A stretch of DNA of 63,997 nt, the filler included, from Basidiobolus ranarum (lineage: Eukaryota), in NCBI GenBank assembly GCA_040143965.1. It is 7 parts of 7 records of this genome, joined end to end, with 100 filler letters (N's around TTAATTAATTAA, not from the genome) between each part and the next. Parts side by side here need not be neighbours in the genome. Positions count along the whole stretch, not along the records: positions 1 to 9,206 come from JASJQH010007735.1; 6 more parts are not named here. The stretch is one strand, 5' to 3'. Of this stretch, positions 1 to 46,381 are shown piece after piece. The position numbers and the translations under genes are program-made. Each line of letters opens with the position of its first letter. Position 1 is the first letter of the stretch. Below the pieces are notes generated by a model. The model did no database searches. It was not told where the DNA came from and worked only from the letters and a program-made list of their open reading frames with translations.

Positions 1-5
1 CCTAC

Positions 6-115
6 AACTTCTCAAAAGCAGCAGCATCAAAGATCTTATCATTGGCAGGACCAGAACAGTCGATTGTGAACTTGTAGGTAACCTTCTTGGCTTTGACTTG
101 CTTAGCGGCGGACAT
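6..115 (-). CDS. RPL22: 60S ribosomal protein L22, first exon (gene continues off the window edge)
   Basis: Manual translation MSAAKQVKAKKVTYKFTIDCSGPANDKIFDAAAFEK, then a GT donor at position 5. Confidence 0.9.
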
Positions 116-1170
116 GATAGTGATACTATTGCTGACTGTGGAGAGAAGGAGCTGAAACGTTGAGCTCGTGGTTTTATTTCATTCGAACTTTTCTCATAGT
201 GCTTCATGATTGGTTATTCTACCACCGGGTCATTTTGTGATTCCAGAAGAAATTGATGTTAATCTGATAGTGCTATCTGATATACAAAGACCAAATATAG
301 TATTTTTCAAAAGCCTTGGAGTCAAAATAAACGTTACAATAAACAGACTTTAAGTGAATAGCAATAATGATTGATATGAGATGCTATCACACTAGAAATA
401 GTTGGAGGATTTGAATAAGATTGTTTAGGGTTGGCTTCTAGTAACTAAAGTTGTTTGAACCTGAGGTTGATAGCAAATAAAATCTGTCAATCTATTCTAT
501 AAGAGAGCAAACGTGAGGTTTGAGATTTAGTTGGAATGCAACTTATAATTGATTTTCAGACCAAGGTTGAAATCTGCTCCGGAATTATCTACCCCATCAG
601 TATAGGAGTTGTCGAGTTAGTGACGAATTTAAGAAACCCAATTCGAGGCCCATTAAGTACAAAGACATATACACTATTATCTTGCTCTTAGTCATACTTC
701 CACTATTTTATGGTTTTTGTAGTTCCTTAATAGTTTAAAACTCTGTTCCAAGAGTGTAGCTTAACTAGACATTGAATGGGAATTAAACGCTTCATTTATT
801 CCTATACAACCATTAGCTGTTGAAAATGCCATGGTTTAGGCATCTGTATAGTCATATAGCTAGCTTCACTATGTTATTATTCAACATCTTCATGAGGAAT
901 ATATTTAGCAACTTGGAAGTTCTCAAATTATAAGATTTTCTCAAACTTTGCACTATATGTTGAAACTAACATAGCCTAAACATCTAAACTTCTTTTGTTG
1001 AAATTAGCATTACCTAAACACCTATATAGTCATATATAGCTTAGTATTTAGTTATCCTATATTGAACTAAGATATTACCCATTATTCGATATCAGAATTT
1101 ACTTAGAAGTTTGAAGATATGTAGATTTTGATGACTTGTGCTAGAAGCCCCAAACTTTGCACACATGTTT

Positions 1171-1500
1171 CTGGGACCTTCCTTAACATATTCTATACGT
1201 GAATTTGTTAACATCTTGACAAAAGTATAAATGTCAACTTTCAACTCAATAAATCAATAAGTGAAAACCACCAATTTCTCTAATTCTCCAAACCACTTCT
1301 AACAGGCTCCTAAATACTTTAACAGTTCCTGGGACCTTCTTTGACATATTCTACATGTTTGTTTGCTCACTCTTCAACACATTCTACATGTTTTTTTGCT
1401 TACCCCTTGACAAAACTATATAAATTAATTAATAAGTGAAAGCCATCATTTCTTTTTAGTTCTCCAAACCACTTCCAACAAACACCCAAAATACTTCAAC
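1171..1500. repeat. Degenerate tandem duplication of about 160-170 bp (1171-1328 and 1329-1500), possibly a TE remnant
   Basis: Both units contain CTGGGACCTTC, ACATATTCTA, CTTGACAAAA, AATAAGTGAAA, TTCTCCAAACCACTTC and AAATACTT in the same order. Confidence 0.7.
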
Positions 1501-2190
1501 ATTAGCATCTTGGAGAATTAGAGAGTTTTATAACCTTGTTTCCTGAAGTAAAGCATACTGTTCATCAGAGGAATACTCTTGGGCAGTCTGTTGGTACCGT
1601 GGTAAGTGTTTTCAGAAGCTAAATAATTGTGTTGTGAAGTTTTGCTTCACTACAAGCATAGAGTCAAGAACTCATTATTTGTACCATTTGAGATAATTTC
1701 ACTTTAACAACACTCCAAAAATCAACTCAAGTAAACGATTCAGAAATAAATTTACATGCCTCTGACCAAGCTGCCAATAGCCGACATATGACTTTCTTGA
1801 CCCATTAATTGACACACAAACATGTAGTTGACTAACGATTGTGTTTGTCAATGGAAACTATTGTACTCAACTAAGCTCGTAATTCAACAAGTGCATTGGG
1901 TTTTTTCTGACTATTTGACAACATGCTAGAAGTACATTTTACTACAAAGAGAACTATGTGCTTCCAAAGTACCTCATGTTTAAACTAATAATTTATGAAT
2001 TGAGGATCTTATTAAATAATGGTATAAATTCACAAAGGAGGACTAAATGGCATATGAGGTGGTAAAGTGCCGCTAATCTAAAGAAACAATAGCATTAACT
2101 CAAAGATTACCTACACAGGTTACAGGTTGGAGTTTCGATTGCAAGTATACTATTTTGCTACATACTTTCTTAGCCAATATAACCGCATAT

Positions 2191-3341
2191 TTACACTGTT
2201 CTGGTGGAGTTTTCGTTTTGCCTTCCTGGTGTAAAAGCGTGATCTTCAGTCTCATTTTCACCGCTACCGTTAGGGTGTACCTGAAATAGAACATTAGATA
2301 TCTGATATGTAATCACAAGAAAATGTATTGTATTCACCGATCTGTTCAGAATCATAGTTTTGAGCTCCTCTTTAAGAATCAAAAATACCAGAAGTTAGGC
2401 GTATCCATAAATGTATAAAACTATGGCTGTATCGTTAATGAGTTTACCAAATTTCTGATCGGATAGCTTGTTGAATCTAATGGAACTGGAGCCTTGATGG
2501 TCTCCATAAAGATTGGAGTCCATAACTGAGTACTCGGCACAATTCTTTGCAAATTCTGCAAATACTTCTGGCTTGTTACGGTACCTGAAATGAATAAAAC
2601 GTTACTCTAACGCTTCGGATACTGCATGAAAGAGGATGGTTGGTTACATTAACCAAGCTTCTTGATTTGGACAGTTATGTTGTTGGAGGTTGTCAAGAAC
2701 GGATTTTTTGAATGAACTCTTGATATAATAAAGTATATGCGAAATAAAATCCTTATGAGGAGTCCAATGCGGAAAACGCTGCTTCAAAGAAAAACGACGA
2801 TACACATCTACTAAAGGATGGAATACGTCGTTAATGAAGTCAACGGAAGGTGCCTTGTCAGGATACGTAGGTAACGTTAAGGATAATAAGAGAATAAAAG
2901 TCAAAAACATTTAAGCTCGTTAAAAAAGGATATTCTTGTGGGATGACAAGCTTGAATTTGAATATTCCATTTCGATAATATCCCTTGTGAACAAAGATTG
3001 TACCATACCAAACTATTTCGACCATACATAAGGATTAGAAGCTTATTTATAAATAACATTATGAACGATAATAAATCACTACCGTTCATGTTGTCTAAAG
3101 ATGGCATCATATAGATTCCACTGGGGCAATGGCTTGGATTCCGAAGGTTGGTAAATTCAATCATGAGTTCATAACGCTTGAAGTATTGAGAATAAAATTG
3201 TGGGCGTTTTTTTTGAGATACTCTTTCTGAAGCGGCTTCCGAATCATCTTGCTCATACAACGCACTATCAGTCTTTGGGCTTCTAGTGGCTTGAATTGAC
3301 AATGAAGTGCCTTGTCTAGGAGTACCATTATTTGACATCAT
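2191..3341 (-). CDS. AKTIP/Ft1-like ubiquitin E2 variant (UEV) protein, multi-exon
   Basis: Spliced: GIYMMPS..VWYGTIFVHKGYYRNGIFKFKLVIPQE|YPDKAPSVDFINDVFHPLVD..WTPHKDFISHILYYIK; UBC fold with no catalytic Cys after HPLV. Confidence 0.8.
2867..2933 (-). other. U12-type AT-AC intron (67 nt) in the AKTIP-like gene
   Basis: 5' splice site ATATCCTTT, branch TCCTTAAC 9 nt before the terminal AC; removal joins CAA GA|G TAT CCT (QEYP) in frame. Confidence 0.92.
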
Positions 3342-5064
3342 AATCCACGCTGCTATATTGGGGTAGTGAAAGGAACCTTAGCTATACCTCAAAGAAGACC
3401 TGATGTATGAAGGCTAATTTTGTGAAACATTTAACCCTTATACGAAGTGAAAGTAATAAGTAAATTCAGGAGTAAACTGCTATCATGTTTCATAGTTAAC
3501 TCAATTTATTGATTAGTAAATTTTATTTAACATTTACAAATTTTGACTAGTAAAACCAACATTTAATCTGCCACTAAATAGTTGCAGAAATTTGATTAAT
3601 CCATGACATTCTGTTAATTAAAGCTACGAATTTATACCAGACTATACATGTACTCCACGGCATCAGAACCTTTATCCTTACGAAGAGTAAAAAAAGTATT
3701 TAGGTAAGAACGAAGATGAGGAGCTTGAACTACTCATTCTAGAATCTCTTTATCAATACACTTCTGATCAACATTGCGAGTTTCGGGAATGGTTTTCTTT
3801 CGTTGTTTCTCATCGAAAAATTCATCTGATGGAAGTGGCTACAACGTAAGATTGATTGACACGTATTAAAGGGACTCCGTTCACTTTATAAGGACCAGTA
3901 ACTAGCAATAAACCAGAGGTAAGCCGCTTCAAATGCACCATTCTCTTACCACAGAATCATACAGCCAAGAGAACAATTATACCAGGGGTGCAGGAAGCAC
4001 AAAGTATAGTGGGCTTGGCAGTCTTACGAGAGGCTTTAGGTTGGACAACATCTTATGCAGGATACCAACGAGGAGCTTTGTTCAAAGAGAGAGCTCATTA
4101 CCATTTTCTCGCCGTTAACTTGTTCATGGTAGCTGAGTCATTTGCTTTTATAAAGGGCACGCCTGAACGAGAGAGGTTAGTAATGCCAGGAGCGAGGAAG
4201 AATTCTAGGCTTGTGAGACGTGTTTTTAGATTCACCACTAAAAATAGTTTTTGAACAGTAGTCGATGGATGTAATGGCTTGCAGGTTGGTCCGTTCGAGA
4301 ATGTCATTTAGATTTTTGGATTATATTGACTCGTTTTAGAATTGATAACTCGCCAGGTACTGTAGACCACTAGATATAGAATTACCAAGAGAGGGCAACT
4401 TAGGATCACCATTCATAAAAATATACAATACTTTGTAGCCAATCAATTCGGTGTGAGGGAATTATCAACAAACCTTTCACTAATCCCTAATAAAATAAAA
4501 GACAATTTACATTACAACACTTCAGTTGTATAAACCCCAACTTGACGGTAGAGCACATTCCGAAAAAGTAAAGAAATATTTGTTCAAAACAAATTCACAC
4601 ATTGATTTGACCAGATCATCCGTGGCAATATTCACTTGGGTGCCAGGTGCTGAACAAAACAGAGTCATCGGGTGAAGATCGTACAAATTTACCAGTCACT
4701 TCCACAAAGCTTCTGTGATTGAATTGAGAATGGGATTGGAACTTTGAAGTATTGATCAATTTGGATCAGCAAACAAAGAAATCTAGATGGAAAGTCGTCA
4801 CTTAGCACAACAGAAAGAAGTCCAAAATGCCTTATCCATTTTGATTGGTTATACTTTACTGTTGACATGACTTTTAGAAGCTCTTGACTGGAATAAAGTT
4901 TTATTAATATATTTCCTCCTATTTAATTGGTAGAGTCGTTGTTTTGTTCAGACACGCAGTTGACACTCAGGTACACGTGATGTGATTCGCGATTTAACTA
5001 TATAATCCACATAACACGCTATGGCAGCAAACATTCTCACTCTACTCAACCATTTCAATCATTA

Positions 5065-6402
5065 ATGCCTGAAGTTATTTCTATTCACGTCGGCCAAGCC
5101 GGTGTTCAAATTGGTAATTCTTGCTGGGAACTTTATTGCTTGGAACATGGAATTCAACCTGATGGCTTTATAAATGAATCTGTCGCCACTGGTCAAACTA
5201 CTTGCAAAACATTCTTCTCTGAGACAGGCTCAGGTAAATATGTTCCTCGCACCATCTTCGTCGATCTTGAACCTACCGTGGTGGATGAAGTTCGCACCGG
5301 AGCTTACCGTGATCTTTTCCATCCGGAGTTTCTTATCTCTGGTAATGAGGATGCTGCTAATAACTATGCTCGCGGACATTATACTATCGGAAAAGAGATT
5401 ATTGATGGCGTCGTTGACAAAGTACGTAAACTCGCAGACAATTGCTCCGGTCTCCAAGGTTTCATGGTTTTTCACTCATTTGGTGGTGGGACGGGCTCTG
5501 GTTTTGGGGCACTTCTGATGGAGCGTTTGTCAACTGATTATGGGAAGAAATCTAAACTAGAGTTTTCCATTTACCCGGCCCCTCAAGTGTCCACCTCATG
5601 TGTTGAACCTTACAACTCTGTGCTAACTACACACACAACCTTGGAACACTCGGACTGTTCCTTCATGATCGATAATGAAGCCATATATGATATATGTCGT
5701 CGTAACCTAGATATCGAACGTCCAACTTACAGCAACCTTAATAGAATCATTGCCCAGGTGGTATCTTCTGTCACCGCTTCGCTTCGTTTTGAGGGTTCAC
5801 TCAATGTCGACTTGGCCGAATTTCAAACCAATTTGGTTCCGTACCCTCGAATTCACTTCCCATTGATCACCTATGCTCCGATTATCTCTTCCAGTCGTGC
5901 TTATCATGAGCAATTATCTGTCTCCGAAATCACAACGGCGTGCTTTGAACCGAATAATGTTATGGTCAAATGTGATCCACGTCACGGGAAATACATGGCT
6001 TGTTGTTTGTTGTATCGTGGAGATGTGGTACCCAAAGATGTTAATGCAGCCATCTCAACTATCAAGTCAAAAAAAACCATTCAATTTGTTGATTGGTGTC
6101 CTACAGGATTCAAAGTAGGAATCAATGGTCAAGCACCAACCAATATTCCTGGTGGAGATCTAGCCAAAGTTAACCGTGCTGTCTGCATGCTAAGTAATAC
6201 CACTGCTATTTCAGAGGCTTGGTCACGATTGGATCACAAATTTGATCTCATGTACTCCAAACGAGCATTTGTTCACTGGTATGTTGGAGAAGGAATGGAG
6301 GAAGGAGAATTCAGCGAAGCCCGTGAAGATCTTGCGGCTCTCGAAAAAGATTACGAAGAAGTTGGAATGGAATACGAAGAAGAAATTGAAGAAGAATATT
6401 AG
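5065..6402 (+). CDS. Alpha-tubulin, intronless, divergent N-terminus
   Basis: 445-aa ORF with [26 protein letters not shown] and C-terminal EEY. Confidence 0.97.
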
Positions 6403-7315
6403 AAAGTGAATATTTTTTATCAATGATTTACCAGGTTTGTACAGTGTATAGTAAAAATAGAACAGTGAGCAAACCACATCCAAGTGGCGTGTCAACATCA
6501 AATCAAATAAACATTCATACACAGTTTTCGAAGGTGACAAAAAATCTCTCCTCAGTTGTTACGCCATCAGTAGCAAAGTAGTTATTGTGGACATATGCAC
6601 AAAGTGTGTTTAGCTTCATCTTGAGTTCTGCCCAAATACTGACAACCAAGTCATATTACCAGCGGAATGTATGGGTATCCAAATTTACTATTTGGGATGT
6701 CTAAAAAGATGAATCGAATACTAGTGAATATTTCGGAATTACCCTTCAATTCAATCTGACATTCTCGTGGCTATGAGAAATTCCCGCAAAGCACAAGTCA
6801 CACTTTTACATTTCTACCTGTGGCGGTGTATGATATAGTCCGTTACTTCCGTCAAACTCACTCAATTTTTACTGCAGGTGTCTCAGGAGATGTTTCTAAT
6901 TATAGGTGATTCTAGTTACATGCCTTTTATTCATGTAATTCATTATGTAATTATTGAACCTCATAGAAAGGTATAGCCTGTCATGTCAAACCAATCAAAG
7001 CTCTTTTGAAATTCGCTATACACATATAGTGGAGGGCCTATTCATACGTCACGGGAGCATCAGTTTACAAGCCAGTAGTAACAGTTAATGCCACTAATTC
7101 TAATAGGGCTATTTTGGATCAAATGTATGTTTGATGGTTCTCGTATCATGTGCACTTCTTGCTACTGGTAGTTAATAGGAGGTAATTTGTATTTAATATG
7201 CGTTTAACCGGTGCAAGTCAAGGCTCATAGAACAAAACTTCGAACGGTGGTGTTTATTTATATTTTGTGACTTTGAATGAAAAGTCAAGTTAGTCGAAAC
7301 TCCACTAAACTAGTC

Positions 7316-9206
7316 ATGTCTTCCAACTCTCTACTCTTACGGCTCTTCAACTCGGAATTTTTCACTTCCTGGTTGGCCATTTCTTATATTTTTAAGTATC
7401 CACACTCTGTGGGTATCCAGCATTATTTGTGCAAAGAGTTGACGAAGTTTCCACTTTCCGAGATTGAGTTTTTTTTACCTCAAATATGGTACGTTGCTCT
7501 TACTCAGAACTGCATTCAATGTTCAAGTGCTCATATTATTTCATTTTTTTAGTCACCTGTTGATATCTCGCCCAGAGCAGTCTGTTTCATTAGAGAACTT
7601 CTTACTCGAACGTTGCAAACTTTCCACGCACATTGCTATTTTGGTATTTTATTCGATTTTTGATACTGATAAGTCATCCTACTTAAATGTTACTCGGATA
7701 CTACTTAGACTTTTTGGTATCTCCAGGCATACATGTCTGATTTATCTTCAACTCCTCACTCTTCATCTTACAGATTGTGCAAACGTATGCACAATCAAGT
7801 TCAAAATATCATTTTCAAAGAGACATGTGATGAACACAACGAAATTCTCAAAAAACAACCTAAAGTAAGAGAGAATGTTTTTCCTGCGCTTGTTGGGATG
7901 AGCGCTCTTCTTGCTGGTATAGCCAACTCAACTTTAGCCTTGAATACTGGACAAATGGCTATTGAGCAAGGCAGACGAGCACCTTTTTACCAGCCTGTAA
8001 ATCAGGATAATACCACTGAGAAGACAACTGAGGGTACTTTGATAACCAAAGATAAAGAACTTAGTACTGAGCCGTTGGATATTCAGAGCTCAAGTGCTTC
8101 TTACAGGGGATCTAAGGCTTCCTCTCGTATTCCTACGTCATCCCCTACCTTAGAGGATTTATATAAAGGAAGGGCTTTTTCTTTTGGCCATTATATCAAA
8201 AGCACTGCTGCTAGACGTAGCTATGAACGGATTTCTACATTAAATCTTTCCTCTTCAAAGTCGTTGGATAGAAGGGAAACTGAGTCTTATTCCGAAGCTA
8301 CATCACCAGCTCCTGATTCGGATTCAGATTTTGAATATGACTTATTTCTCAACTCGAAGCCTTCAAAAAGAAAGCAGTTGATCGACGGGCATTACTTCCA
8401 TTCAGAAATGTCGTTTGTGATAGCTTTGGTGGATATATCAAATCGATTGTGTATGCTCCCAAAAAAAGCAAGACATATCTTTTTAAAATTGGAATATATA
8501 TACACTCTTTCTCTTCAAATTGATGAGCTCATTTCGCTAGTAATTTATATACAGATTACCCTTAACTTTTCTTACTCAGCTCTTTGCACGCCGAACTTTC
8601 GTTACTCAACCATAATCTGCCTGCTGACGTGTGTATTCCACTTTGGTGTCCAGCAACCGTGGACAATCCATACATCACAAAATCGTACGGATCCCTCCAC
8701 CAGATGCAGTTGTTCTTAACTCTGCCGAAAGAGTACGTATTGGCTTTAATACTCATACTGGATAGTTTAGTAGTAATCGTAAGCACCGTTATAGGTTCCG
8801 TTTCTCATTATGGTGGAGGTCATTGAGACAGATGCTGATTTTGATGAATCTTTATTACTCAAGTATAAACCTTCGGCCCCAGCTCAGGCTGAGGAGGATA
8901 GTTCAGACTCGGACTCCTCTGATTCATCTCAGAGGCCAATTCATATGGGTATGAGTGTCCGGTTCTTGGTTCTATCTATTTATATAAACGGATGGGAGTT
9001 CTTGGTCGAATACTGAATTGATGTCAATTAATAGGTGATGAATTTAAAAGAACTACCTCAATGGCAAGCACTAAATCGCTGGATATAACCGATTGCGAAG
9101 GGATATCTTCTCAACTTAGCCTCAGCGCTTCTCAAACCAATAAAGAACATTTTGAGAAGGTTGTACCACGTCGTAATTCTTGCGCAGATGATGGTTTTGC
9201 CGAGCA
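7316..9206 (+). CDS. PIK1: Phosphatidylinositol 4-kinase Pik1/PI4KB, 5' part; truncated by linker, one apparent frameshift near 8673
   Basis: LLLRLFNSEFF, EIEFFLPQI, YFHSEMSFVIALVDISNRL, ARLSSLHAELSLLNHNLPADVCIP, HHKIVRIPPPDAVVLNSAER|VPFLIMVEV. Confidence 0.9.
8475..8575 (+). other. U12-type AT-AC intron (101 nt) in PIK1
   Basis: 5' splice site ATATCTTTT, branch CCCTTAAC at 8559-8566, 3' end ..TTCTTAC; splicing gives AGA C|TC AGC TCT TTG CAC (RLSSLH). Confidence 0.88.
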
Positions 9207-9306
9207 NNNNNNNNNNNNNNNNNNNNNNNNNNNNNNNNNNNNNNNNNNNNTTAATTAATTAANNNNNNNNNNNNNNNNNNNNNNNNNNNNNNNNNNNNNN
9301 NNNNNN
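9207..9306. other. Artificial contig linker
   Basis: 100-nt block of Ns with central TTAATTAATTAA. Confidence 0.99.
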
Positions 9307-45694: not shown

Positions 45695-46381
45695 CTAATT
45701 CATGCATCCAGAGCAGCTAGATTTCATTCCACCCGAATTACTGTTACCATCTAGTTGTACATTGTTCGCCTGGTTTGGATGGAAGTTTTGCTCGGGTGCG
45801 GTATCCAACATCTTCTTTTTGATTTCTCTGTTAATAGAAGGTTGGTTTACTTATAGAAAAGAATGAATACACCAACTCAAGATAACTATACCTAGCCAAA
45901 CTGTAGAATGCTTCTTCAACACCAGCTTTGGATTTAGCACTGGCTTCAACATATTGAATTCCATACTCTTCAGCTAATGCTTCACCTTGGTCGTGTGTAA
46001 CAGCCTGGTTGTTGATGATGTTTAGCAAGAGAAAAACTATGTCCTTCCGATAATTTATATAAAATAAACCTTACCTTTTTATCTTCAATATCACATTTGT
46101 TTCCAATCAAAATTTTAGATACACCCTCATTAGCATGTTGTTCAACATTCTTGATCCAGTTACGAACATCTGTGAAGAAGAGTCAAGAAAGATACACGCT
46201 CCACTATGAAAAAAAGGGAAATTAAACCATCAGAAGGTAAAGGATACTGTTGAAAGAACGTTCATCGGTAACATCAAATACTACGATGATACCCATGGCA
46301 CCTCGATAATAGGCTACAAAAAATAATATATCATGAGTTAATTAAATCTATTCCAATTTCACTGCAAAATGAACTTACCAG
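45695..46381 (-). CDS. Rab8/Sec4/Ypt2-like GTPase, 3' part
   Basis: [63 protein letters not shown]. Confidence 0.92.
46170..46247 (-). other. U12-type GT-AG intron (78 nt) in the Rab gene
   Basis: 5' splice site GTATCCTTT, branch-like TTTCTTGAC 12 nt before the end of CAG; splicing gives AAC A|AT GTT CGT (NNVR). Confidence 0.85.

Follow-up and report, generated by a model that had tools for sequence, protein, structure and literature searches.

The DNA analysed here (the window, a stretch of 63,997 nt from Basidiobolus ranarum) is made of seven contigs joined by runs of N (9207-9306 and five later ones), and the gene with which this study is concerned lies wholly on the first, which spans positions 1-9206. 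This gene is read from the minus strand and has six coding exons, whose conceptual translation is exactly P0002, a protein of 271 aa under the NCBI name Basidiobolus ranarum; the AT-AC junction of the gene's second intron is therefore already part of the public annotation. The features of the gene, in the order of transcription, are:

3083..3341, minus strand: AKTIP/FTS coding exon 1 (gene model as in P0002)
3013..3082, minus strand: intron 1, GT-AG, 70 nt
2934..3012, minus strand: exon 2, Pfam UQ_con positions 30-55
2867..2933, minus strand: intron 2 of 5, U12-type AT-AC, 67 nt, phase 2 in Glu113
2923..2933, minus strand: minor 5' splice site ATATCCTTTTT, a complement of the U11 5' end in this genome
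2876..2889, minus strand: branch region of the AT-AC intron, core TCCTTAAC at 2883-2876
2867..2869, minus strand: 3' splice site TAC, whose end lies 9 nt past the branch motif
2648..2866, minus strand: exon 3, Pfam UQ_con positions 57-113, starting GTATCCTG, a word resembling a minor donor that the E-Y-P codons spell
2585..2647, minus strand: intron 3, GT-AG, 63 nt
2448..2584, minus strand: exon 4
2370..2447, minus strand: intron 4, GT-AG, 78 nt
2338..2369, minus strand: exon 5
2281..2337, minus strand: intron 5, GT-AG, 57 nt
2191..2280, minus strand: exon 6, through the stop codon

The encoded protein contains a UBC domain (PF00179, 61 bits with a cut-off of 27), its best solved relative is the AKT-interacting protein 8qat_D (E 4.7e-19, with UBE2A next at 1.5e-12), HPL replaces HPN, and residues 128-143 contain no cysteine. 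Because of this combination of domain, best match and missing catalytic features, the predicted product is to be classed by sequence as an inactive E2 variant of the AKTIP/FTS type, in agreement with the AKTIP-like E2 variant named in the original prediction. It is like the known AKTIP/FTS proteins (human 8qat_D, and Aspergillus FtsA as presented in the accessible text of PMC4091831) in having a UBC fold that lacks the catalytic cysteine, and like the human protein in particular as its best sequence match of solved structure. The same source places FtsA in an FTS-Hook-FHIP complex that serves the dynein transport of early endosomes. The B. ranarum genome has five matches to the FHIP-like family PF10257, a likeness to that complex at the level of genes alone; by analogy, the most likely role of the protein would be in an FTS-Hook-FHIP dynein adaptor.

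The second intron carries a full set of minor splice signals. The donor, ATATCCTT in its short form, agrees with the U12-type consensus RTATCCTT, the branch consensus TCCTTRAC is matched close to the 3' end, and the terminal TAC supplies a YAC acceptor that restores the conserved reading frame, so that donor, branch and AC acceptor lie where they had been predicted. From the known U12 model, the branch adenosine would be at 2877 or 2878. The intron splits codon 113 after its second base; its removal joins GA to G and yields IPQEYPDKAP, the typical E2 segment that AT-AC splicing had been expected to give, and its retention shifts the frame and leads to a stop at 137 aa. The strict pattern of donor, branch and acceptor occurs once in the whole window, at this intron, with a chance expectation of 0.0012 per window and 1.2 per genome (order-2 Markov estimate); the class assignment refers to this strict consensus match.

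To compare this junction with others, we enumerated all GT-AG, GC-AG, AT-AC, AT-AG and GT-AC pairs that lie between 3010 and 2651, span 21 nt or more and connect the reading frames of exons 2 and 3 with no intervening stop, and scored the resulting proteins against a profile of 21 homologs, all of them from outside Basidiobolus. There are 211 such pairs (82 AT-AC, 53 AT-AG, 42 GT-AC, 29 GT-AG and 5 GC-AG), and the proposed AT-AC junction ranks first, with 341.0 bits; its lead is modest, the runner-up scoring 333.9 bits and the best GT-AG pair (2908-2854, donor GTTTTTGA) 329.8 bits. The 24-residue length that the AT-AC junction gives to the span from F106 to H129 is also found in 131 of 164 homologs. 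One element of the original prediction has to be withdrawn, namely that no GT-AG pair restores the frame: 34 of the 211 pairs are GT-AG or GC-AG, although in these the donors are poor or the conserved segment suffers.

A paralog of the gene (G000:C73:339-405) has an AT-AC intron, likewise of 67 nt, at the same codon. The first 11 nt of the two introns are identical, and the branch motif and the TAC are conserved, whereas identity is 33/67 nt overall and 10/38 in the middle; the flanking exons are identical at 62/79 and 164/219 positions. Conserved ends around a diverged middle are the pattern that a selected intron presents, and, as judged from these alignments, the intron would be older than the duplication that produced the paralogs. 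Public annotation holds three isoform models for the paralog, two of which splice the AT-AC intron and one of which (P0003) reads through it.

The AKTIP intron is one of many of its kind in this genome. A strict search returned 48 AT-AC hits versus 1 in the reversed control, and 35 GT-AG hits versus 0. Two of the AT-AC hits lie in a tandem repeat on contig C1661 and are probably false; with these and one duplicated GT-AG row dropped, 46 AT-AC and 34 GT-AG hits remain, an AT-AC share of 46/80 (58%) that is pattern-based and covers short introns only. For human minor introns, the share given in the available part of PMC10639083 is about 26%. The 48 AT-AC hits fall into phase 2 (24), phase 1 (17) and phase 0 (7) under a longest-open-frame heuristic, the shortage of phase 0 that the consulted text of PMC7367187 describes for U12 introns. 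Two minor-intron motifs on the same strand, about 1 kb apart, occur at each of two loci, L017 (G000:C80) and L034 (G000:C6897), possibly genes with two minor introns.

For the related species B. meristosporus, the accessible parts of two reports give 249 minor introns (0.554%, a density above that of any other fungus; PMC10639083) and 237 (PMC11347168), and the former gives 205 for Rhizophagus irregularis. Since Basidiobolus is by this account the fungus richest in minor introns, the AKTIP intron is what one would expect of the genus, and adds one more minor intron to it; it agrees with those of B. meristosporus in genus and class, and differs in belonging to another species. A clean junction is annotated in the orthologous proteins of both B. 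meristosporus and R. irregularis, and the corresponding introns may already be present in introns.info and MIDB. The name AKTIP occurs neither in the main text and supplement of PMC10639083 nor in the supplement of PMC11347168, as far as these were available, and its Ensembl identifier is likewise absent from the latter.

The minor snRNAs that the original prediction called for are present. At least one full-length copy each was found of U11 (84.6 bits, Rfam cut-off 39), U6atac (66.3 bits, cut-off 33), U12 (49.4 bits, below the cut-off of 53, E 2e-7) and U4atac (46.6 bits, below the cut-off of 53, E 2e-5), and none of the four in 14 control genomes. The copy numbers are lower bounds, because each search scored 41-50 out of several thousand first-look candidates. 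Candidates for proteins specific to the minor spliceosome are one match above cut-off to PF05253 and one to PF18036, putatively U11-48K and U11/U12-25K; PF05253 also has a match in 1 of the 14 control genomes. A TCCCA word lies about 55-70 nt upstream of all four minor snRNA genes (L001-L004), and is possibly a shared promoter element. In B. meristosporus, too, U12 and U4atac are listed as putative only in the available text of PMC11347168.

Computed pairings connect these RNAs with the intron and with each other. The segment 2889-2878 is a perfect 12-nt complement of this genome's U12, the longest among the 80 strict hits, and the branch/U12 duplex has an energy of -14.9 kcal/mol, with 1 of 300 shuffles as low; the donor/U11 duplex reaches -6.1 kcal/mol (3/300 shuffles as low), and the two U4atac/U6atac stems -26.3 kcal/mol (stem II, 0/300) and -10.0 kcal/mol (stem I, 4/300). 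An A stands directly before the branch motif in 36/80 hits, versus 832/2880 background bases, which is suggestive only of co-variation between U12 and branch. Two pairings are no better than shuffles, that of the donor with U6atac (-2.8 kcal/mol, 219/300 as stable) and the short U12/U6atac helix (-2.9 kcal/mol, 121/300). The first of these fails because U6atac (L001:1501-1634, i.e. G000:C89:21836-21969, plus strand) reads GUCGA where the model has AAGGA, and a pattern search of the genome found no second copy. The poor complementarity is a property of the snRNA, not of the AKTIP intron.

A U6atac of this sort has a precedent. The accessible text of PMC2396436 describes a "CC variant", [GU]CCGA, that pairs poorly with minor donors and occurs in Trichoplax, cnidarians, Acanthamoeba, Physarum, Physcomitrella and oomycetes; for R. 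oryzae and P. blakesleeanus it gives AAGGA. The B. ranarum RNA resembles the variant in that the donor-pairing pentamer is replaced and the pairing with U4atac is intact, but its GUCGA is one base off GCCGA, and the host list in that text includes no fungi. Among titles in a literature search that covered few subscription journals, we found no fungal paper on U6atac with AAGGAGA. B. ranarum can be cultured, has perfect minor donors by the dozen and carries a U6atac that lacks AAGGA; it may offer a system in which to study the puzzle of donor recognition posed by that variant (PMC2396436, in the part available).

One could argue from the same box that some non-standard or hybrid machinery acts on the AT-AC junction, or that the junction is used in the absence of U6atac/donor pairing of the human type. 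The single U6atac copy found has GUCGA as its donor-pairing box, U12 and U4atac are divergent, and the available text of PMC11347168 discusses hybrid spliceosomes and calls the U4atac of B. meristosporus divergent. Yet U4atac/U6atac stems I and II are complementary within the genome, U11 and U12 match the AKTIP intron, and the similarly non-pairing CC variant is found in many lineages that have minor introns (PMC2396436, same part). We regard a departure from the standard machinery as unlikely, and it would alter one step of the mechanism, not the class of the intron; human-type pairing between U6atac and the donor is itself doubtful in B. ranarum.

The signals, the best-scoring junction, the paralog, the four snRNA genes and the complementarity to U11 and U12 all bear out the U12-type reading, and we hold with high confidence that the AKTIP intron is real and functional and would be removed by the fungus's own minor spliceosome. 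It is like other U12-type AT-AC introns in its donor, its branch motif, the short distance from branch to acceptor, its AC end, its non-zero phase, its position as the sole minor intron among GT-AG introns and the presence of cognate snRNA genes; it differs from them in being short, in the unusual length of its branch/U12 complement, and in the absence of the AAGGA box from the U6atac that accompanies it. In the established minor spliceosome pathway, an intron is recognized by U11 and U12 and joined by U4atac/U6atac/U5. Applied to the AKTIP intron, U11 would pair with donor positions +4 to +11 and U12 with the branch region, where an adenosine about 10-11 nt from the 3' end would bulge out; U4atac would deliver U6atac as U4atac, U6atac and U5 join; the branch A would attack the donor; and the AC at 2868-2867 would serve as acceptor, restoring the E-Y-P motif of the full-length protein as GA is joined to G. 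Left unspliced, the transcript would encode the 137-aa product, and since the premature stop has three introns downstream of it, such a transcript would be a likely target of decay.

The age of the intron can be approached through protein models in which it was mistaken for coding sequence. Reading through a phase-2 AT-AC intron leaves EYPF on the donor side (NILF in the next frame) and, on the acceptor side, SLT or FLN followed by T-Y-P, as seen in the window and in P0003. Among 23 NCBI-named Glomeromycota models, which are not independent of each other, the donor is translated (EYPF) in 5, the site is skipped or replaced in 12, and 6 are clean; EYPF read-in occurs in 0 of 214 other proteins, most of them without a species name. 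The residue at the site is D in the clean models and E in those that read in, as expected if the third base is the one with which the intron begins. The Acaulospora model has both the donor-side and the acceptor-side signature, the Geosiphon model has FLN then T-Y-P, and P0216 has NILF, SLT and T-Y-P, that is, the donor, branch and AC acceptor in translation, with an implied AT-AC intron of 76 nt. In addition, P0086 is reproduced from its near-twin L039, a Glomeromycota-like AKTIP transcript, by exactly one of the deletions tried, which removes 11 nt (L039:287-297), starts at the homologous phase-2 site and ends at AC; by sequence this reads as splicing to an alternative AC acceptor that lies 11 nt downstream.

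It thus seems very likely that Basidiobolus shares the AT-AC intron with Glomeromycota, in which it is known from protein models alone, and the intron probably predates the split between the two. These models also indicate a fixable error of annotation, with 17 of the 23 broken at the AT-AC site. The expectation that gene finders would mis-model the gene fails for the B. ranarum record itself, but holds for the family, in which one of the three paralog isoforms is wrong as well as most of the Glomeromycota models.

Among human and mouse genes, the intron has no listed counterpart. AKTIP is in none of eight supplementary files of human and mouse minor-intron genes from PMC6717393, in which the control UBE2H was found, so that, as far as those files extend, the AKTIP intron is not a known animal-shared one; early gain in fungi and loss elsewhere are both possible. 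Apparently common to two early fungal lineages and unlisted in human and mouse, the position provides a test case for gain versus loss. A literature search, with few subscription journals covered, returned no relevant paper on AKTIP together with a minor or U12 intron.

A feature of exon 3 bears on the side of gain. The exon starts with GTATCCT, which agrees with the minor donor at 7/7 bases, more than in any other of the 82 strict hits, and the paralog matches at 6/7; aside from these two AKTIP paralogs, none of the 82 has a downstream exon start that is donor-like at more than 5/7. It might be supposed that the intron was gained early in fungi at a D/E-Y-P coding word which read as a minor donor beforehand and which the insertion duplicated, and that Basidiobolus and Glomeromycota then retained it, with loss, or absence from the start, in other lineages. 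Clear gains of U12 introns are rare, the accessible part of PMC2831892 reporting one case. We consider this history rather improbable: the Tyr-Pro codons alone explain the donor likeness of the exon start, no other hit exceeds 5/7 donor-like bases, the exon begins with T in the L039 transcript, and loss in animals is both the simpler account and the commoner process. Target-site duplication as a general origin of Basidiobolus minor introns was rejected, 6-7/7 matches being confined to the AKTIP paralogs among the 82 hits.

A recent gain within Basidiobolus alone was first suggested by the metagenome, where 0 of 17 AKTIP loci have an intron at this codon. Several of these loci are transcript-like or intronless and thus carry little weight, but L040, L042 and L053 are genomic and clearly intron-bearing. 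The absence of AKTIP from the human and mouse tables would fit such a gain, as would the other E2 genes of B. ranarum, in which L105-L134 (30 of the 52 PF00179 matches) have no U12-like motif or intron at the exact AKTIP position. The idea was dropped on the Glomeromycota proteins, in which translated donor, branch and acceptor signatures stand at the same codon in several genera, and a gain restricted to Basidiobolus is now very unlikely. A scan of viral contigs for a Glomeromycota genomic relative found none among 272 candidate stretches. Metagenome locus L053 has an apparent 88-nt GA-AG intron (1373-1460), judged against its contiguous relative L048, 8 nt downstream of the AT-AC site. In two of the E2 genes, L120 and L126, an AG acceptor lies 2 nt upstream of the homologous site, in phase 0 before D-Y-P; they were rejected as carriers of the same intron on account of this different position.

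Two further readings concern the junction itself. The major spliceosome could use a nearby GT-AG pair, at best the 55-nt one from 2908 to 2854, with the U12 motifs incidental; this pair keeps most of the domain, and the GT-AG and GC-AG pairs that restore the frame are not few. Its donor is poor, however, it replaces DK by six intron-derived residues at a place where most homologs have no insertion, the U12 signals alone are conserved in the paralog, and the public gene model uses AT-AC, all of which makes splicing at a GT-AG pair highly improbable. An unspliced insertion into a dead gene copy, as the premature stop on retention and the read-through isoform P0003 might suggest, or an artefact of assembly, is a scarcely credible account of the segment, given intact exons in both paralogs, splice signals kept around a diverged intron middle, a B. 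meristosporus protein 90% identical with the same junction, and 46 similar introns elsewhere.

The AKTIP intron may not be the only minor intron in the window. At 46170-46247, on the minus strand, a Ras-family (Rab-like) gene has a GT-AG intron of 78 nt in phase 1, with donor GTATCCTTT, branch TCTTGAC and acceptor CAG, which is a probable U12-type intron of the GT-AG subtype. Closer to the AKTIP gene, at about 3680-4170 on the minus strand, lies what is probably a processed pseudogene of ribosomal protein L6e, decayed by stops and frameshifts and without visible introns, and an apparently intronless reading frame, which by eye we take to be alpha-tubulin-like, extends over about 5065-6402 on the plus strand.
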